DNA of 64,000 nucleotides from an uncultured Pseudomonadota bacterium (GCA_963805995.1 CAWDWL010000041.1:12769-76768), one strand, 5' to 3'; counted from the first letter of the stretch, positions 20,004-38,973 are shown. The notes: generated by a model from the sequence alone, not told the origin. Made by a program: numbers and translations.

Positions 20004-21952
20004 ATGAAGGAACCGGGGAACAGTGGGATGAAAATCGAAATCAGCCACATCGGACCGGCATTCGACGGGCTCAGCTTCGGCAGTGTCGGACCTTACGAGA
20101 TCGTCATCGGTGTTCTGCACGGCGAAGTTGATCCGCGGCCATCGGCTTAACGCCGACAATCGTCAACCTCGACCAGGCGCCGCGCAACGCGGCGGGTATG
20201 GTCGAGTATCAGGTTGAATTCTGCCTGCTGAAGCCGGCCGACATGCGCCGGCACAACGGACGGATTCTCTACGACGTGCTCAACCGCGGCAACAAGCTGG
20301 GACTCAACGCGTTCAACGACGCTCCAGCCCGCAACGACATCAAGGGCGCGGCCGACGCGGGCAACGGTTTTCTGATGCGCCACGGGTACGCGGTGATGTG
20401 GAGCGCCTGGCAGGGCGACGTCGCGCCGGGGGAGGGCCGGATGCTCGCGCGTTTCCCGATCGCGACCGATAGCGGCGCGCCGATCGTCGCCATCAATCGC
20501 GACGAGTTCATCTTCAATCACAACCAGAACCCGGCGGCGGCGCCGCTTAGTTATCCGGCCAACAGCCTCGATCAGGCGCAAGCCGCCCTCACCGTTCGAC
20601 AACGCGAGCCCGACCCCCGCGTCGCGATTCCGGCCACCGGATGGCGCTATCTGTCGCCCAAGGCGATTGAGATCGATCGGCCCGCCGAATTCGACGCCGG
20701 CGCGATCTACGAATTCATCTATCCGGCCCGCGATCCAATTGTCATGGGACTGGGCTTCGCCGCGATGCGCGACGCCGTAGCGTTTTTTCGCCATCGCCGC
20801 GACGACGACGAGGGCCGGCCCAATCCGCTCAACCGCGACGGCGCCGGACCGTCGATCGCCAGCGTCTTCGCTTTTGGGGCGTCGCAGTCCGGACGCTTCC
20901 TGCGCGATTACCTATGGCAAGGCTTCAACGAAGACCTGGAGGGCGGCAAGGTTTTCGACGGCGTGATGCCCAGCCTCGCCGGATCGCGCAAGACCTTTAC
21001 CAACTTCGCCTTCGCGCAGCCCGGACGTTTCTCCTGTCAGCATGAAGATCACTTGACCCCGGGCGACCAGTTTCCCTTCGCTTACGCGACGCGTCAGGAT
21101 CCGGTCAGCGGCCGGACCGACGGAATTCTCAAGCGATACTTTAAATTAGATACGTCCCCGAAGGTGCTGCATGTCGACAGCAGTGGCGAGTATTGGCAGG
21201 GTAGGGCGTCGCTGGTCGCGAGCGATGATGTCGAGACAGAATCTAAAGTATTAGATGAGATAAGGCTATACGCATTTTCCGGCACCCAACACGGAGGTCG
21301 GCTGGCCTCGACGTTTTTCACGTTCTGCACCTATCCTGGAAATCCGGTCGAGATGAACCCCGGCTATAGGGCGCTGCTGGTGGCGCTGGACCAATGGGTC
21401 AACGCGGGTGTCGCGCCGCCGCCGAGCCGCCATCCGCGTACGAGCGACGGGACTTTGGTTGCGGCTCATTCACAAGGCTTCCCTGCGATTCCCGGGGTGT
21501 CGTACACCGGCCTCGTCAACCAGCTTAGCGAAGTGGATTACAGTTCTCAGCCGCCAAAACCGATTGCTGGCCATGACTACGTCGTGATGGTGCCGAAAGT
21601 GGATGCCGACGGCAACGAAATCGCGGGCATCAGGCTGCCCGACGTGGCCGCGCCGCTGGGCACCTATACCGGATGGAATCCGCGCCGCGCCGGTTTCGCC
21701 GAAGGTGAATCTTCGCTGTTGGGCTGCTACATCCCATTCGCCGCGACCGCCGCGCAGCGGCGCACCGCCGATGATCCCAGGCCCTCGTTGGAGGAGCGCT
21801 ACCAAACCCACGAGGCGTACGTCGACGCCGTCGCCCGCGCCGCCCGCGAATTACAGCAAGCGCGCCTGCTCCTGGCCGAAGACGTCGAGCGCTATATCCA
21901 GGCCGCCACCAAGCGCCGCAAGCACTTTGTTTGGTCAGCCTCGAAGCCATAA
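20004..21952 (+). pseudogene. Alpha/beta-hydrolase-domain protein of unknown function; the N-terminal ~40 codons are in a different frame
   Basis: The main ORF 20198..21952 is 584 aa. Frame-3 segment 20004/20028..20150 encodes MKIEISHIGPAFDGLSFGSVGPYEIVIGVLHGEVDPR.... This looks like the family N-terminus that should run into ...IVNLDQAPRNAAGMVEYQVEF. One or two indels lie between 20132 and 20160. Confidence 0.55.
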
Positions 21953-22444
21953 CAGGGTGCGCGAGGTAGGATGTGCCCGCGCACATTGCCAAAAAGAGTA
22001 GGGCGATCGGACGCCGTCACTAACCCCCAGTGCAGCCGGGCGAGCGTTCCGCAGACCACTGGAGAGCAGGGTGGCCGTATCTCCCGCTCCCGGTGTCCTC
22101 ATTGCGCCAGTGGCGGTGAACAACACGGTCACGGGATGGTAGAGCTCGGCGCCGGCGACGGCCACGTTCATGTCACCGCCGGGAGAGTGAAGCGCAGGGC
22201 ATCGTCGTCTTTGCAGATGCCCCAAAACAACGGTTTGAGACAAAAGACGGCGACTAAGGCGGATTTTGTTAAGTTGACATAATATTTCTTATGCGAAGTA
22301 TCATCGAGAAAAGCACAGCGCTCGCTTTCATGAGCGGGTCTGGCTTGTCAATCTTGGCCCTTGCCGCAGCAGCCAACCGGGCAACATCCCCGCCCCGTTC
22401 TCGATTTAGCGCGGTTAATCGTCGCACGGGCCGCCTCCAGGAAA

Positions 22445-22473
22445 TTGCGGTGTGCAGAAACTTCGGCTAGCAT
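22445..22473 (+). promoter_or_regulatory. Candidate sigma70-like promoter of vapBC
   Basis: TTGCGG, a 17-nt spacer, then TAGCAT. The aggag RBS follows 8 nt downstream and the ATG is at 22491. Confidence 0.35.
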
Positions 22474-22490
22474 ACACATCAGGAGCCGCC

Positions 22491-22697
22491 ATGCGAACCA
22501 ACATCGTGATTGACGATGAATTGATGAAGCGCGCGATGCACGCCTCGGGCGCGAAGACCAAGCGTGAGACGGTCGAGCGCAGCCTCGAACTGATGGTGCG
22601 TTTAAAGGCCCAGGAAAAGATGCGGGAATTGCGCGGCAAGCTTCATTGGGAGGGCGACCTTGAGGCAATGCGCCGCGACCGCTTCCCCAAGCAGTGA
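22491..22697 (+). CDS. vapB: Type II antitoxin, VapB family
   Basis: MRTNIVIDDELMKRAMHASGAKTKRETVERSL is the typical VapB/ribbon-helix-helix-like N-terminus. The stop overlaps the PIN gene start (GTGA). Confidence 0.8.
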   Translation: MRTNIVIDDELMKRAMHASGAKTKRETVERSLELMVRLKAQEKMRELRGKLHWEGDLEAMRRDRFPKQ

Positions 22698-23089
22698 TCC
22701 TGGTCGATTCCTCGGTCTGGATCGCTTACTTCAACGGCGTGCAGAGCCGCGAAGCCGACCTGCTTGATCAGTTGATGGGTTCGGGGCAGTTGCTGATCGG
22801 CGATTTGATCCTCGCTGAGGTATTGCAAGGCTTTCGCTCCGAGCTTGACGCCAGACGCGCCCTTGAGCGCTTCGACGCCTTTGATTTTCGCGACATCGGC
22901 GGCCACGAGATCGCTGCTGCAGCGGCGCGCAATTATCGCCTCCTGCGAGGAAAAGGCGTTACTGTGCAGACGACGATTGATACGCTGATCGCTACATTCT
23001 GCATCGCCCAGGACCACGAGCTGCTTCATTGTGATCGCGATTTCGATCCGTTCGAGCATCATCTCGGACTACGCGTGATCAGGGCTTGA
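22694..23089 (+). CDS. vapC: Type II toxin, PIN-domain ribonuclease VapC
   Basis: MILVDSSVWIAYFNG (first acidic residue), ...LIGDLILAEVLQG..., and C-terminal HCDRDFD. Confidence 0.85.
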   Translation: MILVDSSVWIAYFNGVQSREADLLDQLMGSGQLLIGDLILAEVLQGFRSELDARRALERFDAFDFRDIGGHEIAAAAARNYRLLRGKGVTVQTTIDTLIATFCIAQDHELLHCDRDFDPFEHHLGLRVIRA

Positions 23090-23213
23090 ACGTAGTACGT
23101 TTCAACCGGGTCTCCACCGCCCTCATGATCTCGCATGCGTCGATAATGACGCCTCTCTTTGAGGTCGCCATCAACTTATAGAAGGGGTCCCGCGGACGCT
23201 GGGGTCGATGCGC

Positions 23214-23486
23214 TTACTCACTCAGCCATTTTTCGGTGGTGCGGCTGGCGTACCAGCATGGGCTGGCGCCGAAATGCGGGAAGATCGCGTGGACGCAGGT
23301 TACTTTCTGGATGCCGGCGTCGCGGTACTCGGTGTGGCCGCCCTTGAGCGCCATCGAATAGAAGACCCGGACTTGTACTTCACCATAGACCTGGCGCGAC
23401 GGCGGGATCGGAAGCCAGATAGCCAGCGTGTCGGCCAGGAACAGGACGCACAAGGAGATGGCGCAGATAATCAGAATGCGTTTCAT
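23214..23486 (-). CDS. Hypothetical small membrane-anchored protein
   Basis: 90 aa with an N-terminal hydrophobic segment (MKRILIICAISLCVLFLADTLAI). No family recognised. Confidence 0.4.
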   Translation of the reverse strand: MKRILIICAISLCVLFLADTLAIWLPIPPSRQVYGEVQVRVFYSMALKGGHTEYRDAGIQKVTCVHAIFPHFGASPCWYASRTTEKWLSE

Positions 23487-23564
23487 CCGATTTCATAATC
23501 GCAAAACGCGAGGGTCCGGAAAATCAAATGCGTTGGATCCAGTTTTTGTACTTGAAGGGTGTCG

Positions 23565-23590
23565 TCACCCTCGCCCTGCCCTCTCCGGGG
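23565..23590. repeat. Degenerate member of the CCCTCACCCT/CCCTCTCC repeat family
   Basis: tcaccctcgccctgccctctccgggg shares the family motif with 1060, 18942 and 29579. Confidence 0.4.
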
Positions 23591-23908
23591 TGCCGCGCAA
23601 AATTGATGCGGAAATAGCCGCTAAGACGTCCAGTTTTATCATCGCCAGGTGTTCTCACGAATTTCGCCCTCGCGCAGAATTAGTGGCTTGGCCGCGCCGC
23701 GCAACCCTTCTCGTCATGGCGTCGGAATGCCCCAGAGGCGAGCATTTCACCCGAAGGAAGACTGTAAGTTTACCTCGATTTGTTGAGCAAAACTCCGACG
23801 GGGGCGCACTCGGCGGCGGCGGATCGATCAAAGTTGTGCGTTTTGACCCCAGCCGACCCCTATCGCAAGCGCGGCCGGCGGCCGTGAATCCATCCGTCGT
23901 GTTTCAAG

Positions 23909-24490
23909 TTAGAACGTATCCACAATCACGCGCAGCGTATCGTAAGCGAATTGATGCGACGTATCGGTGTTGGTTACGAATACCTGGGCTTCGAACGTGA
24001 TATTGGTGGGCGGCCCGAGCCCGAGGTTGAGCGCGGATATCCAACTGAAGATCGTGTTCTTGTCGAGGCTGATGTTCGGACTCTGGGTGCCGCCATAGGT
24101 GGAGAAGTTTGGGGAAGTTCCGCCGCCACCCATCGCGCCGGCGTAAGGCGAAAAAGCGACGTCCATGAAATCCAGCAATCCATGAGCGTTATTGACGTTC
24201 AAGGTGGCTTCGATGCTGTTGATGATTACCTTGTTGTTGCTCCCCTGCCCGTCTATACCGACATAATCCACGGTGAAATTAGTGAAACTTGAAAGGTTGA
24301 CCTTGGCGGTCTCGCAGGTCACCACGCTGGTCGCCCCGGCAGGAATCGGACTTCCGTCGGTGATACCATCGTTGTTGCATGTCAGCACGATCTGCGCGGC
24401 CGCCGCGGAAGCTAACGACCACGCGCACGCCAAAACCAACAGCCCAGCCAACGATGCGGACGCCGCTATGAGAACTCTTTTCACCAACAT
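23909..24490 (-). CDS. Hypothetical secreted Asn/Thr/Ser/Gly-rich protein
   Basis: The Met at 24490 is preceded by a ggggag RBS. Signal peptide MLVKRVLIAASASLAGLLVLACAWSLASAAA. 193 aa with predicted beta-rich composition. Divergent from the giant gene. Confidence 0.6.
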   Translation of the reverse strand: MLVKRVLIAASASLAGLLVLACAWSLASAAAAQIVLTCNNDGITDGSPIPAGATSVVTCETAKVNLSSFTNFTVDYVGIDGQGSNNKVIINSIEATLNVNNAHGLLDFMDVAFSPYAGAMGGGGTSPNFSTYGGTQSPNISLDKNTIFSWISALNLGLGPPTNITFEAQVFVTNTDTSHQFAYDTLRVIVDTF

Positions 24491-25103
24491 GCTCTGCTCC
24501 CCACTGGTTAGCGATTTATCCGGAATATCCGATTCGAAATCCTGCCTTGGATCCGTCCCGACACCGGCCAGTTGGTAAACGCGCGCTGTCCGGAGCCTTG
24601 CTTCCCGGGCGTCAGATAACTCTCCAGCCAGGAGCAACCGGTGTAATTGGCCACGTCTTGTATCAAACGTCCGCCGGTTTTACCAGACCCTGGTGCATCG
24701 GTAAAGCGAGCATGCGGCATTGGCGCACGCTCCTCAGTGTTAGAGAGTCCCGAAGCGCCGCAGAACTGACCCATTGTTGCGGAACCTGCCTGACTCAAAA
24801 TAGTAAATAAGAATTTACGGTTGCACGGGATGGTTATTGGTGCGAGTATGGGGCGGTTTCAAAATCGGAATAGTCCTCTTTCCTTTGCTAAAGGTCGATT
24901 GATTGGGCTGCTGCGCGCCCGCGCCGCAGGCGGCTTTGGGGAGCGGCCCCTGGAGAACGGCTGAATTTCAAATTCGTGAAATCCGCCCCCAGCCGAGCCT
25001 GAAAGGACCGTGGACCAAAACCACGCCCGAATCCCCACCGGGGGGCGGGCGCAGCACGAATGGAAATGCGGATTCAAGAAGTGCTGGCGAAAAGGAGCTG
25101 TGT

Positions 25104-28100
25104 ATGAAGGGCAAAAAGACGGGAATGACGGTCTTAACCGTCGTCCTCACAACTTTGATGCTTGGGTTTGGCCTGACTTTGCCAGCACGTGCGGACACGG
25201 TCTTTAAGTGCCCCAGCGAAGGCCCCTTGAAGCAGGGCGGAAACGCCAACCTTGACCTCAAGGTGGACGGCGTCTGTGATGTGACTGGTACACCCGAGTC
25301 ACCCCGCACAAGTTTGTTGTTCGTGTTCAGAAACGTGAACATCGTCGGCGGTGGGAAGTTGAACTTTAAGGACGGTCAGGACATCGACTTTTATGCCGAG
25401 TCCATCCTGGTCGAGAACAAAGGGATCCTCCAGGCGGGTTCTCCCACGACGGCAGGAGCATTCAAATCGAGGCTGACGTTCCATCTGTGGGGAAAACCGA
25501 CGGATGACGGGATCGAATGCCAGAGCGGCGGAGCGACGCCATGCGGCATCCCCGCCGAGCTCTGGGATGGGGCTTTTGCCAACCCAGGCATGGCCACCCA
25601 TATGAATATGGCCATGAAAACGCCGCCCGATCTTCCGAAGAACGCAGCGTGCAAATCCTCTCCCGAAACCTATAGCGACCTGCTTCCGGGCGGCGATTGC
25701 TTTTATCAGTATGAAGTACAGGACGTCCAGGACAGAACCAACGGCAAAAAGGCCTACTTTGGCCACAAAGTCTTAGCCGTTTCCTTTGGCGGCACGCTCA
25801 ACCTCTATGGAGCCAAGGGCGCCATCTATCAGGCCCCCGGTCAATGTGATCCGGAAGTGCCTGCGAACGAATGCAATCCCGCCAACACGGGCACCAGTTG
25901 GAGACGCCTTACCGGTGTCGCTAACGGCGGCAAGACGCTGACCTTGAATAATCCCACTTCATCCTCTCCTAAGGTTGATTGGAAGAAGGATGACCATGTG
26001 GTGGTCACCACCACCGACTATCTTGCTTCCCATTCGGAGGAGCGGATTCTCGAAGAAGATGCCGCGAACAACCAGATTGAGCTGACCGAGGCGCTGACGC
26101 ACCAGCACAACGCCAGTGTCTATCCGATTCCCGCAACGGTTCCGGGCGGCGTCGGACCGGTGAATGACCCGCTTGTTCCCGACGTCAAACGCGCGGTCGA
26201 CACGCGCGCGGCCGTCGCCTTGCTGAGCCGCAACATAAAGATAGTCTCCGAGGGGGCGACTCCTGAACCGGATTCAAAGGTCGACACTTTCCCTCCGACC
26301 GCCGGCAATTTCTATGGCGGCCACACGATTGTGCGGCAGGGCTTCGCCAGCTACCAGGTGCAAGGAGTGGAGTTCTATCGGCTTGGTCAGGGCGGGATTA
26401 TCGGGCGTTATCCGGTGCACTTCCATATGGCACGGCGGACGCCGCAGCAGACCAACCCGGCCAATGGGCCGTTGAACTATCTCAAGGACAGTTCCATTCA
26501 CGAATCCATGACGCGCTGGGTCACGATCCACGCTACCCAGGGGATGTACGTCGCCCGCAACGTCGGCTTCATGTCGATTGGCCACGGTTTCTTCCTCGAG
26601 GATGCCACCGAGATCAACAACAAGCTCTACGCCAACATCGGCATCTCCGCGCTGGCGGCGATTAAAAACAAGCAGAACCCGCGGCAGGTCCCGGGCATCC
26701 TGGCGGACACGTCCACCAATAGTTTTGGCCCTTCTGTCGACGCCATGCCGTACCGCTCCGACTTCAACCATCCCACCGTTTTCTGGATCATGAATGGCTG
26801 GAACGATTTCCAGTACAACCTGGCGGTCGGAGCTGCGACCTGCGGCGCCTGCTATTGGTGGCTTCCCGGATCCGACAGTGGGCCCTCGCAGTACGAATGG
26901 TGGGATGGCTATGCCTCGCAGCAGATCTGGGACCCGCAAGGGAACACGAACAAGGACACCAGCAACGTTTCGGGCGCCGGTTTTACGCCGCTGAAAAGTT
27001 TCGTTGGCAATTCGTGCGTCGCTGCCCAGACTTCGTTTCAATCGGTGGGCGCCGCCAATGCCTGCCTCGGAGTGGCGACGCAAGATGCCGGAGGCTTCAC
27101 GGCGGTACCGTCGCCTGCGCCTCCCGCACCTACAGACATAAACAGGTTTAACATCTACTATCCGATCATCACCGGTAAGCATAATCCGACGATCTGCCCC
27201 GGGGCCGATTCTTCCTCCGTGCAGTGCGGCATTACCAAGACCAACAATCCGCAACTGTGCGACAACAGTACCGCGAAGGGTTGCACCGCAACGGTGCTCG
27301 ATCATTACACCACTTCGTTTAACTGGGCTGAAACCAACTTCTCGGCGGTTTGGTTGCGGGGACAGTGGTTCCTGGTGCGCAACAGCGCGATTACTGACGT
27401 ACAAACCGGAGGTTTGAACTTCGTGACCGGTGGGGGCTATACCCGTTCCGACGTTGCTTTAGGCTATTGGTCGTTAATACGCAAGAGCCTATTCGTCGGT
27501 CACACCCAGCCGCTGGACGGCCCCAATAAGTATGCACTTCCCAGCGGACCTTTTAATCCATCCAGCAACCTGAAATGTGATGGCAATGGCAACAATCTTT
27601 GTGCATCGGCCGACAATGGAGCCGTCTTTATTGAGAGTGTGTTTCCCGGACAGCGGCTGTTCAACATCTACGACGGCCCGGCGTTCCAGGAGTACAACGC
27701 ATACCTCGACATCACTACCACACCGATCACGGATTGCGCGCCAAACCCGAACGGAGTATGCGCCGGCAGCGCGTTCCCCTCTTCCCGCAACATGGGCGTG
27801 CTGCACGATCTAACGGGAACGGAGGCAAAAAAGAATCAATGCTATCTGCCCAATGCCGCAATCGCCTGGAAGCAGCCAAACGGCTTCTACTATCCACCGG
27901 CATTCAACTCCGACAACCTGTGGTTTGATAATGTCGAAATACGTCACTTTGTAGTGGAGCCGTTCTTCAAGACGGTGGGGTACGACCCATTCGTACAAAA
28001 CCAGACGGAAGTCGAAAAACGGTACTGCACCTTCAACAGCGGTGAGTTCACCGCCAACTTCAATGATATCGACCGGCAAACCGTGCTCAACGATGACGAC

Positions 28101-29357
28101 GGCACGCTGACCGGTCTGCTGGGAAAAAGCCCAAATGGAGAATTCAAGCCGACTATCTCGATCAACGAGGATAACTACTTCACCGGCCCGTTAATCACAC
28201 CCGAATGCCTCTCCGACCAAGGCGTGACCCCGCTGAACCCCAACAAAAGAGTATTTACCGCGAGAACCAGTCCCTATCAATGGTTGAGCACCGCGATTAC
28301 GGCCGGTTGCGGGATTCAGAATGGGACGAAGGCTCCGAACCTGTTGCAGTGCCTAAACAAAGACAACGAGGTTCAATGGGGCCACGATTGTGCCAATAAC
28401 CGCTGCCGAGGCGTAGTGCTATATCGCGAAGATCTCACCAAAGACGAGATCGGAGCCGCGCCCCTGCCCCAGATCCGTATGATGGGACAGGATACCGCCC
28501 AGCGGAGCACTTTGACGCTGAATCATGGCTCATACTATATCGATACCACCCAGAGTTGCACGTCACAGATTGGAGGTTCGAATCCGGGTAAGTGTCCGGT
28601 GTGTACGCCTGCCCCGGGTCCGAATCCCCCAAAAGGCTCGGACTGCAGGTACTGTAAGCCGGGTACGGACTGCTGGGCAAACCCCGCCGATATTGATCCC
28701 ACCCCGTGGAACCCCTCGTTGTTTGTCGGCGGTGAGACTTACTATGTGTACTTAATATATGCGGACAAAGACACCAAGCAGACCTACGATTTCTACGTTG
28801 GGCCGAATCAAGGGAATAAATATAAGGTGGAAGCCCAACTGGCCGACATACGCAGCGCAAACTATGTGTTCACGTCAGCCGGCAATGTGGATTGGTTGAA
28901 AAGCGAATATCAAGCCGGCACCGGGACCGTGCATGTCGCGGTGAACCTGTCAAGTCAGGCCAAGGCCTTCACGAACTCTAAAGCCAATTTCTGCCAGCCA
29001 CGCAGCTTCTGCATGCCTTCCGGCGACCGATGTGTATGTCAACCGGGAACCGATTGTCATGATGACGCGGTATGCTCGTGGGGGCCCAGGGAGCTCGATT
29101 GTCCAGTGGATGCGGGCGGCAAAACGGCCTGCTACGCCTTCAGCATTACTATGCCGACGGACTTTGTACCGCCGCCAAAACCGCTGGTGCCGGATGCGGA
29201 GAATAAGCTTGAGACTCTCTTTAATCTGTTCGAAGTCAAAGATGATTATTTCAAACCCAACAGCGTGACGTTCACGAATAAGGGACCGAACGACAAAGCG
29301 TTTGATTCCGGACCCGCCTGCAAGTACGCAACGGTTCCGTCGCAGCTGGCCCAGTAA
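25104..29357 (+). CDS. Giant (1417 aa) secreted Cys-rich protein with G8-like and CEMIP/TMEM2/PKHD1-like right-handed beta-helix motifs
   Basis: An aaaggag RBS precedes the ATG at 25104. Signal peptide ...GFGLTLPARA|DTV. N-terminal G8-like segment: GGGKLNFKDGQDIDFYAESILVENKGILQAGSPTTAGAFKSRLTFHLWG. Motif VQGVEFYRLGQGGIIGRYPVHFHM at ~26350-26430. Many Cys residues throughout. Confidence 0.8.
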   Translation: MKGKKTGMTVLTVVLTTLMLGFGLTLPARADTVFKCPSEGPLKQGGNANLDLKVDGVCDVTGTPESPRTSLLFVFRNVNIVGGGKLNFKDGQDIDFYAESILVENKGILQAGSPTTAGAFKSRLTFHLWGKPTDDGIECQSGGATPCGIPAELWDGAFANPGMATHMNMAMKTPPDLPKNAACKSSPETYSDLLPGGDCFYQYEVQDVQDRTNGKKAYFGHKVLAVSFGGTLNLYGAKGAIYQAPGQCDPEVPANECNPANTGTSWRRLTGVANGGKTLTLNNPTSSSPKVDWKKDDHVVVTTTDYLASHSEERILEEDAANNQIELTEALTHQHNASVYPIPATVPGGVGPVNDPLVPDVKRAVDTRAAVALLSRNIKIVSEGATPEPDSKVDTFPPTAGNFYGGHTIVRQGFASYQVQGVEFYRLGQGGIIGRYPVHFHMARRTPQQTNPANGPLNYLKDSSIHESMTRWVTIHATQGMYVARNVGFMSIGHGFFLEDATEINNKLYANIGISALAAIKNKQNPRQVPGILADTSTNSFGPSVDAMPYRSDFNHPTVFWIMNGWNDFQYNLAVGAATCGACYWWLPGSDSGPSQYEWWDGYASQQIWDPQGNTNKDTSNVSGAGFTPLKSFVGNSCVAAQTSFQSVGAANACLGVATQDAGGFTAVPSPAPPAPTDINRFNIYYPIITGKHNPTICPGADSSSVQCGITKTNNPQLCDNSTAKGCTATVLDHYTTSFNWAETNFSAVWLRGQWFLVRNSAITDVQTGGLNFVTGGGYTRSDVALGYWSLIRKSLFVGHTQPLDGPNKYALPSGPFNPSSNLKCDGNGNNLCASADNGAVFIESVFPGQRLFNIYDGPAFQEYNAYLDITTTPITDCAPNPNGVCAGSAFPSSRNMGVLHDLTGTEAKKNQCYLPNAAIAWKQPNGFYYPPAFNSDNLWFDNVEIRHFVVEPFFKTVGYDPFVQNQTEVEKRYCTFNSGEFTANFNDIDRQTVLNDDDGTLTGLLGKSPNGEFKPTISINEDNYFTGPLITPECLSDQGVTPLNPNKRVFTARTSPYQWLSTAITAGCGIQNGTKAPNLLQCLNKDNEVQWGHDCANNRCRGVVLYREDLTKDEIGAAPLPQIRMMGQDTAQRSTLTLNHGSYYIDTTQSCTSQIGGSNPGKCPVCTPAPGPNPPKGSDCRYCKPGTDCWANPADIDPTPWNPSLFVGGETYYVYLIYADKDTKQTYDFYVGPNQGNKYKVEAQLADIRSANYVFTSAGNVDWLKSEYQAGTGTVHVAVNLSSQAKAFTNSKANFCQPRSFCMPSGDRCVCQPGTDCHDDAVCSWGPRELDCPVDAGGKTACYAFSITMPTDFVPPPKPLVPDAENKLETLFNLFEVKDDYFKPNSVTFTNKGPNDKAFDSGPACKYATVPSQLAQ

Positions 29358-29388
29358 AGGAGCGGCCAAGCTGAGCCGCCATGCCGTT

Positions 29389-29439
29389 GCACAGGCTTGA
29401 AGCCTGTGCAGCGCCTGCGGATTTGGGTACCGCAGCCGC
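29389..29439. repeat. Two adjacent REP-like hairpins immediately after the giant gene
   Basis: gcacaggc-ttgaa-gcctgtgc (29389-29409) and gcgcctgcgg-atttgggta-ccgcagccgc (29411-29439). The second recurs at 45276. Confidence 0.65.
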
Positions 29440-29578
29440 ATGCCAGGAGAGGTCGGCGTGCGATTTGCGCGAGCAAGTCGCGTGACGGGTGAGGTGCAGG
29501 CGGGCCTGCAACGATGTATCAGGCGCGCGGAATCCGCTTCTGCGCCAATGCGTTTGGTGTCCGGAAACCCTCACCCTA

Positions 29579-29607
29579 CCCTCTCCCTTGCAAATAAAGG
29601 GAGAGGG
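29579..29607. repeat. REP-like hairpin (CCCTCTCCC family)
   Basis: ccctctccctt-gcaaata-aagggagaggg, preceded by ccctcaccct. Confidence 0.55.
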
Positions 29608-29768
29608 GACAAACTCAACCACCTGCGTGCGAATACCGCGGCATTGCCAAGCCATTTATCGACAGGCTCCTCTTGAGCAAGAGGTTTTCAGAATGGCAAA
29701 ATTAAAGTATTGCTTTAATTAATTCGCGACGCAGTTGGGACCCTCGAGCGTGATCTGACCGGGCTATG

Positions 29769-30590
29769 TTACTTAACCAGCGGCACGAATTCCGGCATGT
29801 CGTCGGGCTTGGATTTCCATTGCGGCTTGCGCTTTTCGAGGAAGGCTGTGATGCCCTCCCCCGCGTCGGGCTGAGTTCCGATCCACCAGAAGATTTGGTC
29901 TTCCACCGCCTGGGCTTTTTCAATTTCCGGCTCGGTCAGGAAGTGGTACATCAGCCGCTTGCTGATCGCGACCGATACCGGCGACGTATTGACCGCGATC
30001 TCGGCCGCCAGCTCGCGGGTTCGCGCCATGAACTCCGCGTCCGCCCATACGTGGCTGACCAGCCCGTATTCGAGCGCTTCGCGTGCGTTCAGGATACGGC
30101 CCGAGAGCAGCAGTTCGCTGGCGCGCGCCAGGCCGACCAGCCGCGGCAGGGTCCAGGCGGCGAGCCCTTCTGGAATGATTCCGCGGCGCACGTACACCAG
30201 GCCGACCCGCGCGCTTTCGGCCGCAACCCTGATGTCGTATTGCAGCGCCAGGGAAGCGCCGGCTCCCACCGCGGGCCCGTTGATCGCCGCGATAATCGGC
30301 TTGCGGATGTTCCACGGGCGCACTTTGGGTCCGTCGCCGGTGCTGAAGTTCTCGCGGCCTTCGCTATCGAAGGTCTTGCTGCCCGACGAAAGATCCGCGC
30401 CCGCACAGAACGCCCGGCCCGCGCCGGTCACGATGATCACCCGCACCTCGTCGTTGTTGTCCAGAGCGTAATATGCCGCGTCGAGTTCCTTCCCCATCTG
30501 GCCGGTAATCGCGTTGAGTTTCTCGGGCCGGTTAAGGGTCAAGGTCGCGATCGAATCTTTGATGTCGATCTGAATCTGCTCCGATGGCAT
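29769..30590 (-). CDS. Enoyl-CoA hydratase/isomerase (crotonase) family protein
   Basis: ATLTLNRPEKLNAI, VIIVTGAGRAFCAGADL and AAINGPAVGAGASLAL motifs. A gaggag RBS precedes the Met at 30590. Confidence 0.85.
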   Translation of the reverse strand: MPSEQIQIDIKDSIATLTLNRPEKLNAITGQMGKELDAAYYALDNNDEVRVIIVTGAGRAFCAGADLSSGSKTFDSEGRENFSTGDGPKVRPWNIRKPIIAAINGPAVGAGASLALQYDIRVAAESARVGLVYVRRGIIPEGLAAWTLPRLVGLARASELLLSGRILNAREALEYGLVSHVWADAEFMARTRELAAEIAVNTSPVSVAISKRLMYHFLTEPEIEKAQAVEDQIFWWIGTQPDAGEGITAFLEKRKPQWKSKPDDMPEFVPLVK

Positions 30591-30763
30591 CGCATTTTCT
30601 CCTCTGTCGCGGAAGCGACGCGCCAAAAAGGGCGCGAAGTCTGTGGCACGCGGGCGATCTGTAGCCAGATCGGATACGCTCGCCAGTCCAAGCCTGGCAC
30701 GGACGTTGGCGCCCGGCGCGCTTCGGGGAGCGGCGGATGACAGCTAGCCGCGCGGCTCCGATT

Positions 30764-31957
30764 CTAGAGCCGGTAGAGAGCGGCCGCGTTGTCGTGCGTC
30801 ATAATGCGCCGCTGCCCGGCGGGTACGTCGCACAGGATTTCATCGAGCACCTGATGCGAACAGGGCCAAGTCGAATCCAGATGCGGATAGTCGTTGGCCC
30901 ACATCAGGTTGCCTACACCAACCAGTTCGCGCGTCAGCACCCCGGCCCGGTCGTCCTCGAAGGTGGCGAAAAACTGGCGCCTCCAGTACTCGCTGGGCCG
31001 CAAGTCGAGGTAGTCAGCCGCCGCCTCCGGGCTGCGGCGCACCGCCTGATCGAGCCGATCCAGCCAGTGCGCAATCCATCCGATGTTGAACTCCGCGACC
31101 ACAAATTTGAGCTGGGGATGGCGATGGGCGACACCCTGGCAAATCAGCTCGACCAGGGTTTGCTGGATCGAAACCGCGGCCCCGGCGTAGGCGATGAGAA
31201 CGTCGAAGCCGGGGCTCGCACCCACCGGACGCCGGCGCGGGCCGTTGGTGCCGGCGTGCATGCTGAGCGGGAAGCCCGCTTCCTCGGCGGCCGCCCAGAC
31301 GCGCTCGTATGCGGCATCGCGATAGGGCCGCTGCACCGGCGCGGTACACGGAATACAGCCGCCGCGAAAGCCCATACGCAAAGTCCGCTCGACTTCTTTC
31401 GCCCCCGCCGCCGGGTCGTGCAACGGGATCAGCGCCAAACCGACGAGCCGCCCACCTGCCGATCGGCAATAGTCCGCCAGCCAGTCGTTGTAATTGCGGA
31501 AGCAGGCGGCCACGAGGTCGAAATTGTCGAGGCCGAAGATCGGAAAGAAGAAGCTCGGATACAGGACCTCGGCACGGATTCCGTCCTGGTCCTGATCGGT
31601 CGTGCGGGCCTCACCATGCACCAGGCCCTCGCGCAAACCCGCGAATCCCCGCCGCAGAATTTCCCGGATGTAAGGGTCGTCCATATCCTCGGGCAGCGGT
31701 TTGTGACCGGGGCGGCGCTCGATCTGCCGGCCAGGATCCAACCGGCGTCCCGCGATTCCGAGCTGCGCCGCCGGCACCGCCCTCCCGCCCCGTGCCGGAA
31801 TAACCATCGCATCGACTTCGCCATCGACACTCGCAATTCGCGGCGCTTCGTCGCCGAAGCGTTGCGTGAGACCCGCGAAAACCTCGGGCGCTTCCACCAC
31901 GTGAGAGTCCGCGGAGATAGGAAGCCCGGCGCTTGCCGGTTGCACAGATAGCGCCAT
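30764..31957 (-). CDS. Amidohydrolase-2 family protein (paralog of 4665..5799)
   Basis: ISADSHVVEAP..., ...MWANDYPHLDSTWP.... A gagga RBS precedes the Met at 31957. Confidence 0.8.
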   Translation of the reverse strand: MALSVQPASAGLPISADSHVVEAPEVFAGLTQRFGDEAPRIASVDGEVDAMVIPARGGRAVPAAQLGIAGRRLDPGRQIERRPGHKPLPEDMDDPYIREILRRGFAGLREGLVHGEARTTDQDQDGIRAEVLYPSFFFPIFGLDNFDLVAACFRNYNDWLADYCRSAGGRLVGLALIPLHDPAAGAKEVERTLRMGFRGGCIPCTAPVQRPYRDAAYERVWAAAEEAGFPLSMHAGTNGPRRRPVGASPGFDVLIAYAGAAVSIQQTLVELICQGVAHRHPQLKFVVAEFNIGWIAHWLDRLDQAVRRSPEAAADYLDLRPSEYWRRQFFATFEDDRAGVLTRELVGVGNLMWANDYPHLDSTWPCSHQVLDEILCDVPAGQRRIMTHDNAAALYRL

Positions 31958-32035
31958 ATCAATCCTCGAATCGATGCCGCCAGAGTTCGTGCTGCTGGTG
32001 GTCTTGGCACTCACCAAGGCGCCAATCGACGCGGT

Positions 32036-33046
32036 TTAGAACTCGAGCATTACTTTGCACTGGTCGTTGGGATGCGAGAGCGCGGCGAAGGCACGGGGCA
32101 AATCGTCGATTCCGACCGCATGCGTGATCATCGGCTCGGTCGAAATCCGCCCCGACGCCAGCAGCGCCATCGCGGTTTCAAACTCGCGTTTTTCCGCGCC
32201 GCTGCTGAAGCGCAAATCGACTTCGCGCCGCAACGCCCGCATCGGAGTGAACTTGTCCACCTCGCCGCAGGCGCCCAGCACGACCACGCGCCCGCCCTTG
32301 CGGACGAAGCGGATCGCCTCCTCGATGGTGCCGGGAACGCCGATACATTCAAACACCACGTCAGGTCCGTCACCGGTCATTTTGATGAGTTCCTGGACCG
32401 GACTGCGCTCCCGCGGGTTCACCACCGCATCAGCGCCCATCTTAAGCGCCATCGCGCGGCGTCCCTCGGCCATTTCCGACACCACTACCGCGCGGGCGCC
32501 CGCAAAGCGCGCCCACATCGTGGTCATCAGTCCGATCGGCCCCGCGCCCATCACCACGCAGGTTTCGCCGACCAGCAGCTGGGCGCGATGCAGACCGTGC
32601 AGGCCGACTACCGCCGGCTCGACCGTGGCGGCCGCGCGATGGCTCAACCCGGGCGGCATCTTCAGCAGTACCCCAGGCCGCGTCTTGACCTTCTCGGCGT
32701 AAGCGCCGGGAGCCTCAAATCCAATCCCAGTCTGTTTGGTGCATAGCAGCGCCTGGCCGGTGCGGCAGAAGTCGCATTCTCCGCAGTTGATCATCGGGAC
32801 GACCATCACGGATTCGCCGGGCTCCAAACCGCTGACGCCGGCGCCCAGTTCGTCGACCACGGCGGAAAACTCGTGCCCCATGATGGTGCCGGCAGGCAGC
32901 ACGCCCCACTGAGCCGCATGCAGGTCGGAACCGCAGATACCACAATTCTTGACCCGGACCACGACCTCACCCGGTCCAGCCTTCGGGTCGGGTACGTCGA
33001 CAACCTCCAGCGGCGCGCCCGGCGCCTTGAACACGCATGCCTTCAT
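32036..33046 (-). CDS. Zinc-dependent alcohol/threonine-type dehydrogenase (MDR superfamily)
   Basis: MKACVFKAPG...CGICGSDLH, GHEFSAVV, CGECDFC structural zinc site, and GAGPIGL. An aggaga RBS is present. Confidence 0.85.
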   Translation of the reverse strand: MKACVFKAPGAPLEVVDVPDPKAGPGEVVVRVKNCGICGSDLHAAQWGVLPAGTIMGHEFSAVVDELGAGVSGLEPGESVMVVPMINCGECDFCRTGQALLCTKQTGIGFEAPGAYAEKVKTRPGVLLKMPPGLSHRAAATVEPAVVGLHGLHRAQLLVGETCVVMGAGPIGLMTTMWARFAGARAVVVSEMAEGRRAMALKMGADAVVNPRERSPVQELIKMTGDGPDVVFECIGVPGTIEEAIRFVRKGGRVVVLGACGEVDKFTPMRALRREVDLRFSSGAEKREFETAMALLASGRISTEPMITHAVGIDDLPRAFAALSHPNDQCKVMLEF

Positions 33047-33114
33047 CCCGGTTCTCCTGTGGGATCCTGTTCGGCCCCGGCCGAGCAGGAAACTGTTTGT
33101 TGTTCGCGCGGCTC

Positions 33115-33999
33115 CTATGCAGTGTGTGCGCGGATGAACTTGCCGATGCCTTCGATCGCTTCCTGGCCTTCGGGGAGGAAGCTTGCGAACAGTTGCCAGA
33201 CGTGGATCATCTCGGGCCAAACTTCAAGCGTTACTTTAACTTGACTCGTTCGGGCACGCGCCGCGACGCGATTGGAATCGTCGAGCAGCACCTCGGCGTC
33301 GCCGACCTGGATCAGCAATGGCGGCAGTCCCTTGAGGTCCGCATGCAGCGGCGCCGCCAGCGGCGTTTTCGGATCCTTACCGCCCAGATATGATTGCGCC
33401 ATCATGAAGAGCGCGTCGCGGCTGGCGATCGGGTCCTTGTCCGCGCGCGTGGTCATCGACTCGCCCTTGGCTTCCATATCGACCCATGGCGACAGGCACA
33501 CACCGGCGGCGGGCAGCGGCAGCTTGGCGTCCCGAATCGCGACCAGGGTGGCCAGTGTCAATCCACCGCCGGCCGAGTCACCCGCGATCGCGATGTGAGC
33601 AGGTTCAAAGCCGTGGTCGAGCAGGTAGCGGTAACCGGCCAGAGCGTCATCCACCGCCGCCGGGAATGGATTTTCCGGGGCCAGGCGGTAATTCAGCCCC
33701 AGCACGCGGACCTGCGCGGCGCGCGAAATCCGGCCTAAAAGGTCGCGATGGGTGTTGACCGAGCCCAGCACGTAGCCGCCCCCATGAAGGTACAGCACGG
33801 CGCGGCCCGACGCGGCGCCCGGCGCGGTGACCCATTCAGCGTCGACCCCGTTGGCGCTGAGCCGTTCGCTCTTGATATCGGGTTGGGCAGGGGCCGCCAT
33901 CTGCTCGAACGCGGCGCGCATTTCGGGTAGCGTCGCCCCGACCTTGTTTCCGAACGCCTTCATGGCGTCGATCGCCATCTGCAATTGCGGACTCGCCAT
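33115..33999 (-). CDS. Alpha/beta hydrolase, HSL-type esterase (paralog of 17998..18930)
   Basis: HGGGYVLGS and GDSAGGGL motifs. Confidence 0.85.
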   Translation of the reverse strand: MASPQLQMAIDAMKAFGNKVGATLPEMRAAFEQMAAPAQPDIKSERLSANGVDAEWVTAPGAASGRAVLYLHGGGYVLGSVNTHRDLLGRISRAAQVRVLGLNYRLAPENPFPAAVDDALAGYRYLLDHGFEPAHIAIAGDSAGGGLTLATLVAIRDAKLPLPAAGVCLSPWVDMEAKGESMTTRADKDPIASRDALFMMAQSYLGGKDPKTPLAAPLHADLKGLPPLLIQVGDAEVLLDDSNRVAARARTSQVKVTLEVWPEMIHVWQLFASFLPEGQEAIEGIGKFIRAHTA

Positions 34000-34158
34000 C
34001 GCCAGGTTCCTCCTCGTCGGTGGGATGCGGCAGCAGCGCGCAAGTCGCAGCGGCGACCGCGCTGTCGCGCGTGGCGCAGCCTAGCCCATTTCGCCCGCCG
34101 CCGCCAAGGCCGCGGCGCCCAGCTGTGTGGATTTCGATATTAAGATAGCGTTGCGGAA

Positions 34159-34377
34159 TTAAGGTTGCCGCGCGTCGTACTCGATCTGGCATTCACGGCG
34201 ATAGCACAGCCCGCCGCCGAGCCAACGGCGCAGCCGCGGCAGCGGCCGTCCGCAGATCAGGCAATGTACTTCGATTCCGATCAGGCCGGTCTGAAGGCCG
34301 CGCGCCTGGCGCCGATCGGAAAGGCTTTCGACGCGCGCCAACCGCGGATGCTTGTGGGAATTGAGTTCAATTGCCAA
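34159..34377 (-). CDS. Hypothetical zinc-ribbon-like small protein (doubtful)
   Basis: 72 codons with only a TTG start available. Contains CLICG...CYRREC. No family recognised. Confidence 0.2.
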   Translation of the reverse strand: MAIELNSHKHPRLARVESLSDRRQARGLQTGLIGIEVHCLICGRPLPRLRRWLGGGLCYRRECQIEYDARQP

Positions 34378-34529
34378 TGGCGTGTACCACCTGCGAATCG
34401 CAGCGGCTGGTGCGAAAAGCTGTTGCCGCTGTCTACAACTAGTTTGACCCTACTGAAAGTTAGTAGTTATTGCAACGATTTATGGGGGCCCGGCGGCCAC
34501 CAAAATCCGCGCGATTTCCCGCCTGACGC

Positions 34530-35156
34530 TCAGCGTTGGCGGCGGCGGGCGCCGCCGGTGCCGCGCAATTGCAGCGGGGTGGGCGGAGGCCGGCGTCCCA
34601 GCGCAAGCAACTCGCGCTGGACCGCGCGATTGCCGGGCTCCAGGTCCAGCGCGCGCTCCAGGTAGCCGACCGCCGTCGGCACCCGTTCCATGGCGACGCA
34701 CGCGCGCGCCAACGAGCGCAGCAGGCCGACGCTGTCGCCCAGGATCTCGCGCGCGCGGCGCAGCGCGCCAAGCGCCTCAGCGGGTTTCTTGAGTTCGAGC
34801 AGCGCCAGGCCCATATCGTACAGCGTCTGCCCGGCCAGCGGATCGAGTTCAAGCGCCTGCTTAAACATTGAAATCGAATTGCGTGGGGCGCCCTTGCGGT
34901 TGAGGTCGGCGGCGGCGGCGGCCAGCCGGATCGATTCCTCGGTAAATATAGACGCTTCGACTTCGACCGTGGCGCGGTCGCGGCCTAATTCAATTTTAAG
35001 GATGCGGGCTTTGCCGCCCAGGTATTGGCGGACCCGGCGCGCCACCTCGCCCTGGCTATCGTCGAGATCCAGGAAGATGGCGCCAATCGGATCGCCGATA
35101 TGATCGTCGCGGAAGATGACCAAAATCTGTTTGCTGACCGCCATGCCAACCGTCAA
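34530..35156 (-). CDS. TPR-repeat protein
   Basis: The C-terminal half has TPR-like helices (FKQALELDPLAGQTLYDMGLALLELKKPAEALGALRRA..., YLERALDLEPGN). The start overlaps the dgt stop (ATGA). Confidence 0.65.
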   Translation of the reverse strand: MTVGMAVSKQILVIFRDDHIGDPIGAIFLDLDDSQGEVARRVRQYLGGKARILKIELGRDRATVEVEASIFTEESIRLAAAAADLNRKGAPRNSISMFKQALELDPLAGQTLYDMGLALLELKKPAEALGALRRAREILGDSVGLLRSLARACVAMERVPTAVGYLERALDLEPGNRAVQRELLALGRRPPPTPLQLRGTGGARRRQR

Positions 35157-36322
35157 ACGCGCTCGTTGGGGTCGAACAGCTTGCGATACTCATCGAGGGC
35201 GAAGCGGTCGGTCATGCCGGCGATATAGTCGGCGATCACGCGCGGCGTCGAGTCGCCCCCGGTCTCCATCCCCTGCGCGATATGCGGCGGTAGCTGCGCG
35301 GGCTCCGCCATGTAGGCTTCGAAGAGTTGGGTCAGCATGCGGCCGGCCTTTTGGGTCATCCGCAGCACCCGATGATGACGGTACAGCTTGCGGCTCATCA
35401 AGTCCTTCAACTCCGCCACCTGCAGCGCCATCGGCGGACTGAACGCGGCCAGCGCGCGGCCGGCCTTTCTCACGTCTTCGACGCTTAGGATTTTGGCCAT
35501 GCTCAGCTCGCGGTCGATGTTGGTCAGCAGGTCGGTCACCATGGTGTCGATCATCCGGATCACGAGCTGGTAGCGCGCTCCCCTGCCCCGCTCGATATCG
35601 GGGAACGCTTCACGCACTACCAGGGCCGCGGTGCGAACCAGTTCGGAGGCCTCCAGATCGGCGCGCGTCAGCATCCCGGACTTAAGCCCGTCGTCAACAT
35701 CGTGCCCCAGATAGGCGATTTCATCGGCCAGGTCGACGATCTGCGCCTCCAGGCAGGGATAGACCGAAGGATCGAAGGCGCGCGCGGCGGGCCGATCCTT
35801 GAAATGGGAATGTTTGATGATCCCTTCGCGCACCTCAAAGGTCAGATTCAATCCCCGGAAGGCCGGATAGCGCTCTTCGATCCAGTCAACGATGCGCAGG
35901 CTTTGCGCGTTGTGATCGAAGCCGCCATAGGGTGCCATCAGGGCGTTGAGCACCTTTTCTCCGGCGTGGCCAAACGGCGTATGGCCCAGGTCGTGGGACA
36001 GCACCACGGCCTCGGCCAGTTCCTCGTTGAGTCCCAAAGCCCGCGCGACCGTGCGGGTAATCTGGGCGGCCTCGATCGTGTGCGTGAGCCGGGTGCGGTA
36101 ATAGTCGCCCTCGTGGTTCACGAAGACCTGGGTCTTGTACTCCAGCCGGCGGAAGGCCGCGGAGTGAATGATACGGTCGCGATCGCGCGCAAACGCGGTG
36201 CGATACGGAGGTTCGGGCTGCGGGTAGCGGCGGCCCTGACTGGCGGCCGCGCGCATCGCATAGGGCGCGAGCGTCCGATCTTCGGATTGTTCCAGTTCGC
36301 GGCGGGTACGCAGCATCGTCAA
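35153..36322 (-). CDS. dgt: dGTPase-like HD-domain deoxynucleoside triphosphate triphosphohydrolase
   Basis: FARDRDRIIHSAAFRRLEYKTQV, RLTHTIEAAQI and SHDLGHTPFGHAGE motifs. Confidence 0.85.
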   Translation of the reverse strand: MTMLRTRRELEQSEDRTLAPYAMRAAASQGRRYPQPEPPYRTAFARDRDRIIHSAAFRRLEYKTQVFVNHEGDYYRTRLTHTIEAAQITRTVARALGLNEELAEAVVLSHDLGHTPFGHAGEKVLNALMAPYGGFDHNAQSLRIVDWIEERYPAFRGLNLTFEVREGIIKHSHFKDRPAARAFDPSVYPCLEAQIVDLADEIAYLGHDVDDGLKSGMLTRADLEASELVRTAALVVREAFPDIERGRGARYQLVIRMIDTMVTDLLTNIDRELSMAKILSVEDVRKAGRALAAFSPPMALQVAELKDLMSRKLYRHHRVLRMTQKAGRMLTQLFEAYMAEPAQLPPHIAQGMETGGDSTPRVIADYIAGMTDRFALDEYRKLFDPNERV

Positions 36323-36466
36323 ACAGCCGGGGATTATCTCTTGGCGCTTTAAGGTTACGGCTCAACTGAAATCCTAGCATCGCGGCAGCGCGGTCAAGAA
36401 GGTGCGGGGATTAATTCTTCAACAGGCTTTGCCCGCGGGGCCGCCCACGCCATATAATCTGCGGCG

Positions 36467-38954: not shown

Positions 38955-38973
38955 GGTTCAGCCGACCACGCCG

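Follow-up and report, generated by a model that had tools for sequence, protein, structure and literature searches.

A TMEM2-like G8 and beta-helix protein, likely secreted and of probable acidobacterial ancestry, in a soil Binataceae genome

The gene and the predicted fold of its product

We examined a 64,000-nt stretch of DNA (GCA_963805995.1, CAWDWL010000041.1:12769–76768), here called the window and numbered from its first nucleotide, from a soil bacterium of the family Binataceae (Binatota). Our subject is a plus-strand gene for a protein of 1417 amino acids (aa) that resembles the core of the animal proteins TMEM2 and CEMIP and that appears to have been acquired from an acidobacterium. 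The original prediction, made from the sequence alone, had described the product as a secreted, Cys-rich, G8/CEMIP-like beta-helix protein, and all the motifs that it quoted are present (GGGKLNFKDGQDIDFYAESILVENKGILQAGSP, RLTFHLWG, GVEFYRLGQGGIIGRYPVHFHM, and the CPVC and CVCQPGTDC stretches). The gene is intact, real, and maintained. Its open frame runs from 24903 to 29357 (+), with the start ATG at 25104 and the stop codon at 29355–29357, and it is indeed the longest open reading frame (ORF) in the window (next longest, 1068 aa). A scan for promoters and terminators gave no signal exceeding the shuffled expectation.

Two Pfam profiles match the protein above their curated gathering cutoffs: CEMIP_beta-hel (PF24606; 153 bits against a cutoff of 27.3, E-value 1.3e-44, aa 404–598, profile positions 2–185 of 212) and G8 (PF10162; 34.5 bits against 22.9, E-value 2.1e-8, profile positions 31–86 of 124 only). 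The predicted G8 domain is therefore present, with the qualification that the profile match is partial because a Cys-containing insert of ∼84 aa (aa 133–216) splits the domain; the remainder of G8 past the insert re-aligns at aa 217–241 in the TMEM2 alignments. Among the sequences of the Protein Data Bank (PDB), the sole match was the TMEM2 ectodomain 8C6I (8c6i_A), found at 3.5e-25 with phmmer and at 1.1e-40 with a profile built from 43 homologs. No NCBIfam model matches the protein, Pfam searches with three C-terminal pieces (E ≤ 10) returned only noise, and the C-terminal 800 aa are without a named family.

The structure was predicted in two overlapping models. Model 1 (aa 31–1200, 43 sequences) is confident for aa 31–530 only, and model 2 (aa 400–1417, 121 sequences) has a predicted local distance difference test score (pLDDT) of 85.7 and a predicted template modeling score of 0.91. 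In Foldseek searches of the PDB, TMEM2 was the sole significant match for both, at 4.4e-19 for model 1 and at 1.9e-20 over 1007 columns (TMq 0.45) for model 2, so that the comparison proposed with the original prediction returned the TMEM2 ectodomain and nothing else of significance. The profile and the predicted structure both uphold the PbH1-like beta-helix turns that had been claimed, and neither outcome named beforehand as refuting the prediction (no significant G8 or beta-helix profile match; an unrelated fold) was seen. Since sequence profiles and models agree on the family, we consider the protein almost certainly a true homolog of the TMEM2 core. The weaker structural neighbors (E-values of 3e-5 to above 1e-2; TM-scores of 0.1–0.3) were all beta-helix glycan enzymes or phage tailspikes, among them GH110, PL6 alginate lyase, fucoidan lyase, and GH82; a viral structure library returned generic tailspike helices only. 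No Pfam or NCBIfam match was found to the beta-helix carbohydrate-active enzymes (CAZymes; PL1/3/6/9 and GH28/49/82/87/110), to which the likeness in fold is weak. The parts of the gene and its product are as follows.

25092–25097 (+): ribosome-binding site AAGGAG, with 6 nt between it and the ATG, as seen in the sequence itself
25104–29357 (+): complete coding sequence of the TMEM2/CEMIP-like G8 and beta-helix protein, 1417 aa plus stop; Pfam PF24606 at 1.3e-44 and PF10162 at 2.1e-8; 99%-identical protein on an independent contig
25104–25193 (+): Sec-type signal peptide, aa 1–30 (KGKK, hydrophobic core, ARA before DT), without a lipobox, as read from the sequence
25194–25499 (+): first beta-helix turns, the N-terminal part of G8, aa 31–132 (Pfam G8 match aa 75–132); all-beta in model 1 at pLDDT 89–97; aligns with TMEM2 chain 66–138
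25500–25751 (+): insert of ∼84 aa with four Cys that splits G8, aa 133–216, not in TMEM2; the TMEM2 alignment passes from query 145 to 217 while the chain passes from 138 to 133–157; low pLDDT in model 1
25752–25838 (+): last G8-type turn, aa 217–245, AYFGHKVLAVSFGGTLNLYG; aligns with TMEM2 133–157
25893–26123 (+): small beta-sandwich inserted in the helix, aa 264–340 (TSWRRL...W..DD.VVVTTTDY...H); the profile alignment to TMEM2 chain 335–394 begins here; model 1 strands at pLDDT >85
26313–26897 (+): CEMIP-type beta-helix core, aa 404–598; PF24606 at 153 bits; 8c6i_A at 3.5e-25 (phmmer) and 1.1e-40 (profile)
26409–26612 (+): conserved polar cluster, a candidate functional site (Y436, H439, H441, S468, R471, H476, H494, E499, D500, E503); invariant in 121 homologs
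26898–28703 (+): continuation of the beta-helix with long Cys-bridged loops and beta-sandwich region(s), aa 599–1200, without a Pfam family; model 2 pLDDT mostly 80–97; Foldseek alignment to TMEM2 spans 1007 columns
28704–29354 (+): C-terminal Cys-rich beta-sandwich domain with one long helix, aa 1201–1417; model 2 strands at aa 1212–1281 and helix at 1283–1296; no Pfam match beyond noise at E ≤ 10

A lectin domain of the GG/PANDER type was not detectable by Pfam, either in the whole protein (E ≤ 1) or in its C-terminal pieces (E ≤ 10), and the protein thus has the core module only and not the full CEMIP/TMEM2 architecture. The span from the G8 turns to the helix is 121 aa here and 237 in TMEM2, where lectin-like domain 1 sits, which leaves room for a small sandwich only and not for that domain; the small sandwich carries a pattern, W..GD.VVV.TDY...H, that is common to the protein and TMEM2. 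Profiles and models together suggest an architecture of a bare G8, a beta-helix, probably a domain X, and an extra Cys-rich C-terminal domain. In model 2, sandwich-like sets of strands follow the helix, and their tentative match to domain X comes from how far the Foldseek alignment extends and not from a pairing of residues. Six Cys of the C-terminal domain (C1297, C1303, C1310, C1324, C1333, and C1343) are invariant in 121 homologs.

The N-terminus, MKGKKTGMTVLTVVLTTLMLGFGLTLPARA before DT, reads as a Sec-type signal peptide, in line with the earlier claim, and export via Sec is very likely on this reading. The signal peptide ends in GLTLPARA followed by DT, with no L-x-x-C lipobox that would mark a lipoprotein; nor does the protein contain a C-terminal sorting signal or a transmembrane (TM) helix, its C-terminus (CKYATVPSQLAQ) being polar. 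It is as Cys-rich as had been stated: of its 42 Cys, most stand in close pairs, and many do not vary across the 121 homologs. The most likely explanation is that the mature protein is a disulfide-stabilized, right-handed parallel beta-helix.

CEMIP and TMEM2 are of importance for hyaluronan turnover, cancer, deafness, and skin aging. In the vertebrate TMEM2 (CEMIP2) ectodomain (8C6I) and its paralog CEMIP (KIAA1199/HYBID), as in the bacterial protein, the G8 turns run on into a right-handed parallel beta-helix in which a small beta-sandwich is inserted. Both sides keep GRYPVHFH, SIHxSxxR, T(V/I)H(A/G)T, GHxFFLEDxxExxN, and FWI...N..N.A.G, and CEMIP too is exported with a signal peptide. The animal proteins have, however, two lectin-like domains, GG-1 (inserted in the helix) and GG-2 (near the C-terminus), whereas the bacterial protein is without both, lacks the TM anchor of TMEM2, and adds the 84-aa Cys insert in G8, longer Cys-bridged helix loops, and an unrelated Cys-rich C-terminal domain. 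A lectin-less arrangement like the bacterial one has been modeled in fibrocystin (PKHD1), where the TMEM2H module (G8, PbH1 helix, and domain X, without lectins) occurs twice, as TMEM2H-1 and TMEM2H-2 (bioRxiv 10.64898/2026.10.19.758525); domain X is matched here by Foldseek alignment length only, and in fibrocystin the module is one part of a giant receptor that also has IPT, PA14, and SEA domains, in contrast to the free secreted protein that it would form here. The beta-helix lyases and hydrolases (PL6 chondroitinase B and alginate lyase, GH110, GH82, fucoidan lyase, and phage tailspike depolymerases) are alike in general fold, with an extended groove that probably binds glycan. In TMEM2, loops 627–662 and 733–756 obstruct the groove where the active site usually lies. 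The Ca2+-binding acid pair of PL6 is not recognizable in the bacterial protein, and the same has been said of TMEM2 (PMC10206443).

Family distribution and the origin of the gene

The gene is a further member of a large family already in Pfam. A word-indexed search found at least 1260 family proteins, and the protein is 42%–66% identical over ∼1400 aa to at least 120 clusters. An exhaustive search with the C-terminal 888 aa recovered 734 representative clusters, always proteins of ∼1400 aa and always matched at the same position. We counted 431 loci among 185,579 species genomes. Of 41 relatives of the host, 21 have a family member; among 61 genomes sampled from the taxonomic family to which the closest acidobacterial genome belongs, one had a match at E ≤ 1e-100, and prevalence is thus patchy there too. 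Against other bacterial G8/CEMIP beta-helix proteins (Acidobacteriota Terriglobales and Binatota; PF24606 with PF10162), the window protein is a full-length member with the same Cys pattern and the same C-terminal domain, yet it sits in a Binataceae genome and in an acidobacterial clade. The statement that bacterial members are functionally uncharacterized agrees with the literature, in which our search found no characterized bacterial G8/CEMIP homolog and no located CEMIP active site. The family could help to locate the active site of CEMIP/TMEM2, and in that respect the window copy is not special. The analysis adds four points: the lack of the lectin domains, a model that is confident over the C-terminal 1000 residues, the mapping of a conserved cluster on successive helix turns, and good evidence for an origin in Acidobacteriota.

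Four loci with the CEMIP helix occur in the window's own genome (G000; contigs are numbered C, compared loci L). Two are distant paralogs, 28%–32% identical to the window protein, at C2 ∼234,261–237,605 (−) and C5 ∼546,092–549,781 (+), with frames of 1347 and 1418 aa. Head-to-head with the distant paralog on C2 lies a frameshifted copy at ∼239,477–243,800 (locus L109, 7124–11801), a Binataceae-type paralog that is 75% identical to its ortholog in the same-genus genome G001. It is split into frames of 384 and 1193 aa by a frameshift near residue 300 (L109, 8251–8259) and is either a pseudogene or a sequencing error. This native-type copy belongs to the same subfamily as the window protein and falls in a different clade; its place may have been taken by the acquired acidobacterial copy, provided that the frameshift is real.

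The original prediction had placed the gene in an accessory-looking stretch, and it does lie in a variable site between conserved genes, with a product that groups with Acidobacteriota and not with the host family. Genes of the flanks are 69%–86% identical in all same-genus genomes; Abhydrolase_10, to the left of the island, has 69%–82% identity across the six other genomes of the genus. Two of these genomes, G003 and G005, keep the order MazG, Abhydrolase_10, variable site, Abhydrolase_3, TPR, HD, RlpA, M13-like, and in neither does the site hold the G8 gene or the three metabolic genes that accompany it in the window. The segment and the distance from Abhydrolase_10 to Abhydrolase_3 are as follows.

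23500–33114 (no strand): variable segment with an orphan 193-aa secreted-protein gene (−), the G8 gene, and minus-strand genes for enoyl-CoA hydratase, amidohydrolase, and alcohol dehydrogenase; by synteny, G003 and G005 are without these genes at the site
Abhydrolase_10 to Abhydrolase_3 in G005: ∼640 bp
Abhydrolase_10 to Abhydrolase_3 in G003: 3.5 kb
Abhydrolase_10 to Abhydrolase_3 in the window: 11.2 kb

The segment is bounded by a conserved element at 23216–23486 and by the conserved Abhydrolase_3 gene.

The best relatives of the protein are all from Acidobacteriota metagenome-assembled genomes (MAGs) of soils and peat, at 55%–63% identity in the best tblastn segment and 51%–59% in full-length BLASTP, against 42%–44% and 39%–41%, respectively, for Binataceae copies (45%–52% in a whole-genome search). 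The acidobacterial sister is thus 63% identical, against 45%–52% for the best same-genus copies. A maximum-likelihood tree (77 proteins, 1279 columns) places the window protein as sister to one copy from Acidobacteriaceae and one from Korobacteraceae, five well-supported nodes deep in a clade whose 42 rows are all Acidobacteriota; the Binataceae copies, including the host's own closer paralog, form at least four other clades. Placement of the protein with the main Binataceae clade is rejected by an approximately unbiased (AU) test (log-likelihood difference 393, p 2.6e-5), for which that clade was picked with the tree already in view. At 56.4%, against ∼63% in the flanks, the GC content of the gene is compatible with transfer but not decisive, since the family has 56%–59% GC in Binataceae too.

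Because the protein is nested in a clade of Acidobacteriota, the flanks are native, and the site is without the gene in two sister genomes, we consider a cross-phylum acquisition from Acidobacteriota to Binataceae likely. The gene would have passed from an acidobacterium (Terriglobales) to a Binataceae lineage, been inserted in a variable site, and been kept under purifying selection. An independent contig from the European Nucleotide Archive (24,989 bp; L117) encodes a 99%-identical protein with the same neighbors, at 97.7%–98.9% DNA identity over window positions 22270–39250, and the two gene copies differ at 34 bases with a dN/dS of 0.15. An assembly artifact is unlikely, since this independent contig carries the same gene in the same context. 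In addition, a copy of a host palindromic repeat abuts the stop codon, and the gene has therefore either been resident long enough to be domesticated or was inserted beside the repeat. That the nearest acidobacterial relative is only 63% identical counts against a simple account of transfer, and means either that the donor lineage is unsampled or that the transfer is old.

The acidobacterial affinity could also have arisen without transfer, from an ancient paralog kept only in this Binataceae lineage through differential loss, or from acidobacterial DNA that was misassembled or misbinned. Several paralogous clades do occur in both phyla, with Binataceae copies in at least four; the genome is a MAG with 4.3% estimated contamination; and the GC content of the gene is ordinary for its family. 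Differential loss, however, would require losses in every other sampled Binataceae genome and would leave the five-node nesting unexplained, and the AU result also speaks against it. As to the artifact version, the gene lies in one contig between genes native on both sides (69%–86% identical to same-genus orthologs), a second independent contig has the same junctions, and the repeat that abuts the stop codon is host-specific, so that this version is already largely excluded. Taken together, an origin without transfer seems quite improbable.

Under transfer, the gene family crosses from one soil phylum to an unrelated one (Acidobacteriota to Binatota), where purifying selection maintains it, which suggests that the gene confers a self-contained, transferable benefit, as a secreted polymer-degrading enzyme would give.

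The polar cluster and the possible role of the protein

In the alignment of 121 homologs (47%–66% identical to the window protein), the invariant polar residues of the helix core are Y436, H439, H441, R444, D462, S468, R471, H476, R485, H494, E499, D500, E503, N511, and D553. We added a nine-row alignment of the core that included the two distant paralogs from the same genome (28%–32% identity), a relative of 1779 aa that belongs to a different family of the class, and the TMEM2 segment as printed by HMMER. Kept in nine of nine rows are YP(V/I/L)HFH, T(V/I/L)H(A/G)T, the His of "GHxF," E499, E503, and the following N..N.G; H439, H441, H476, H494, E499, and E503 are therefore common to distant bacterial paralogs and human TMEM2. 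In model 2, HFH (439–441), RWVTIH (471–476), and HGFFL (494–498) each form the third strand of three consecutive turns, and the histidines of the cluster should accordingly stack along one face of the helix, as far as the model can be relied on.

Our best explanation of the whole, to which we give a probability of roughly 0.5, is a secreted, glycan-acting protein with a TMEM2 core that was acquired from an acidobacterium. Its target, met outside the cytoplasm, would be a polysaccharide of plant, fungal, or microbial origin in the soil or peat matrix. The extended face of the helix would bind a glycan chain, which would be cleaved at the His/Glu cluster (H439, H441, H476, H494, E499, and E503) shared with animal TMEM2. 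We infer cleavage of glycan because the structural neighbors are exclusively glycan-directed, because some homologs add C-terminal domains of the chitobiase/hexosaminidase type (PF13287 and PF13290), because the cluster is kept across kingdoms, and because the gene is transferable as a single unit. Separately judged, a glycan as the target is reasonably probable, and on whether the protein would be catalytic rather than binding only we regard the odds as even. Hyaluronan, which is not expected as a substrate for a soil bacterium, is unlikely in this role.

Several points weigh against this explanation. The bacterial family is known from sequence alone, and the evidence for export reaches no further than the periplasm. 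The purified TMEM2 ectodomain was without hyaluronidase activity, with no active site assignable (PMC10206443), and for CEMIP/TMEM2 the residues so far tied to activity map to GG-1, a lectin domain that the bacterial protein does not have (PMC12423501). The catalytic status of the animal relatives is itself disputed (PMC10206443, PMC12423501). In 80 related loci, no CAZyme or transporter context hints at a substrate. Finally, the His residues could form a structural ladder in the modeled helix and not a catalytic site.

Some of these points would be met by a noncatalytic protein, extracellular or periplasmic, that binds glycan or serves in adhesion or structure, its polar helix face holding a polymer or partner uncut, as some authors argue for human TMEM2. 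The inactive TMEM2 ectodomain without an assignable active site (PMC10206443) favors such a protein, as do the absence of GH28- or PL-type acid pairs, the lack of sequence membership in any enzyme family, and a large, Cys-rich, multidomain build like that of surface proteins. Nevertheless, every structural neighbor other than TMEM2 is a glycan-cleaving enzyme, and a His/Glu/Arg set that is invariant from bacteria to humans across distant paralogs is more typical of chemistry than of binding to variable ligands; an adhesin, moreover, would need an anchor to stay on the cell, and there is no lipobox, C-terminal sorting signal, or TM helix. We hold a noncatalytic role to be a serious but rather doubtful option. 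A more distant thought is that the protein shares only its fold with glycan enzymes and is a protease, an esterase, or a redox or metal-dependent enzyme acting on another polymer. The His-rich cluster (HxH, H, H, E, E) does resemble metal sites more than the classical Asp/Glu sites of glycosidases, but the protein matches no such family, the locus holds no redox partner, and the only known biology of the family concerns hyaluronan (PMC12423501, PMC10206443), so that we find a noncarbohydrate target very improbable.

Within the glycan-acting explanation, a bolder form would make the His/Glu cluster the catalytic center of the whole CEMIP/TMEM2 family, possibly metal-dependent and chemically unlike that of the Asp/Glu hydrolases and Ca2+ lyases among the other beta-helix enzymes, with the bacterial proteins as autonomous depolymerases of acidic soil or microbial polysaccharide. 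We regard this form as speculative and, on balance, improbable; if true, the bacterial proteins would be the first tractable system in which to settle whether the CEMIP/TMEM2 core is an enzyme. That question is disputed for the animal proteins, and the active site of their beta-helix core has not been located (PMC10206443, PMC12423501). Since the bacterial relatives consist of the core alone, as single-gene proteins with a signal peptide and the same polar cluster, they offer simple material for testing what the core does.

Neighboring genes and minor features

The gene is monocistronic, and we propose that its protein works alone. Upstream, the vapBC pair of the original prediction is present (VapB_antitoxin 2e-11, PIN 1e-9), as are the small orphan secreted protein and the long spacer: the gene for the 193-aa secreted protein is divergent from the G8 gene, with a spacer of ∼610 bp upstream of the latter. 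The 193-aa protein has no homolog in any of the 80 related loci. Downstream, convergent genes on the minus strand encode enoyl-CoA hydratase (29769–30626), Amidohydro_2 (30764–32017), a zinc alcohol dehydrogenase, and an Abhydrolase_3 esterase, a set that is not made up of partners of the G8 gene. Two plus-strand ORFs, at 29766–30740 and 30737–31951, were considered as genes and rejected as shadow ORFs antisense to the enoyl-CoA hydratase and Amidohydro_2 genes; they mimic an ATGA-coupled operon and have no family matches, and their "homologs" elsewhere hold stop codons.

No gene partner is conserved in the 80 loci, which were drawn from species-representative genomes. The commonest neighbor cluster, in 20 of 80 loci, was rejected as a partner, being made up of heterogeneous two-component proteins at varying distances and orientations. 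A Ser/Thr kinase fused to an FGE-sulfatase (formylglycine-generating enzyme-like) domain lies directly downstream of the G8 gene in about five acidobacterial loci: L015 12108–14762 (−), L023 12164–15127 (+), L043 11676–14462 (−), L022, and L031. This gene is present beside the closest relative of the window gene and absent at the window locus.

In L117, the contig of a second strain, a fragment of an IS1595-family transposase (1282–1773, −) takes the position that Abhydrolase_10 has in the window, just to the left of the segment with vapBC and the G8 gene, and points to recent rearrangement at a hotspot. In G005 (contig C14; L116 7237–11274, −), the same variable site, between TPR and Abhydrolase_3, carries instead an ORF of 1345 aa that shows no similarity to the G8 protein. 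The element at 23216–23486 (ORF g23208), ∼270 nt long, has 72%–76% DNA identity at the syntenic site in three same-genus genomes and 53% as protein, and may be a conserved noncoding element or small RNA rather than a gene; an Rfam search over 21900–29800 gave no match. At 22270–22299, the 30-nt sequence TAAGTTGACATAATATTTCTTATGCGAAGT, with TTGACA inside it, recurs at 100% identity in G003 and G004, ∼120–140 nt upstream of the conserved 270-nt element; in the window, the two are separated by vapBC. The match between L117 and the window also ends exactly at this sequence.

The two hairpins that the original prediction had noted directly after the gene, as repetitive extragenic palindromic (REP) elements, are both present, and the second belongs to a REP-like family; the first has only two sites in the genome.

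29385–29413 (no strand): hairpin 1, 14-nt arms; two sites in the genome
29411–29439 (no strand): hairpin 2, REP-like palindrome GCGCCTGCGG-N9-CCGCAGSCGC; ∼35 sites in the genome

The family of hairpin 2, GCGCCTGCGG-ACTTGGGTA-CCGCAGGCGC, has a conserved loop and gave 62 strand matches, against 4 (2+2) for a reversed control. Other REP-like sites in G000 include C4:316901, C5:510963, and C41:58044.

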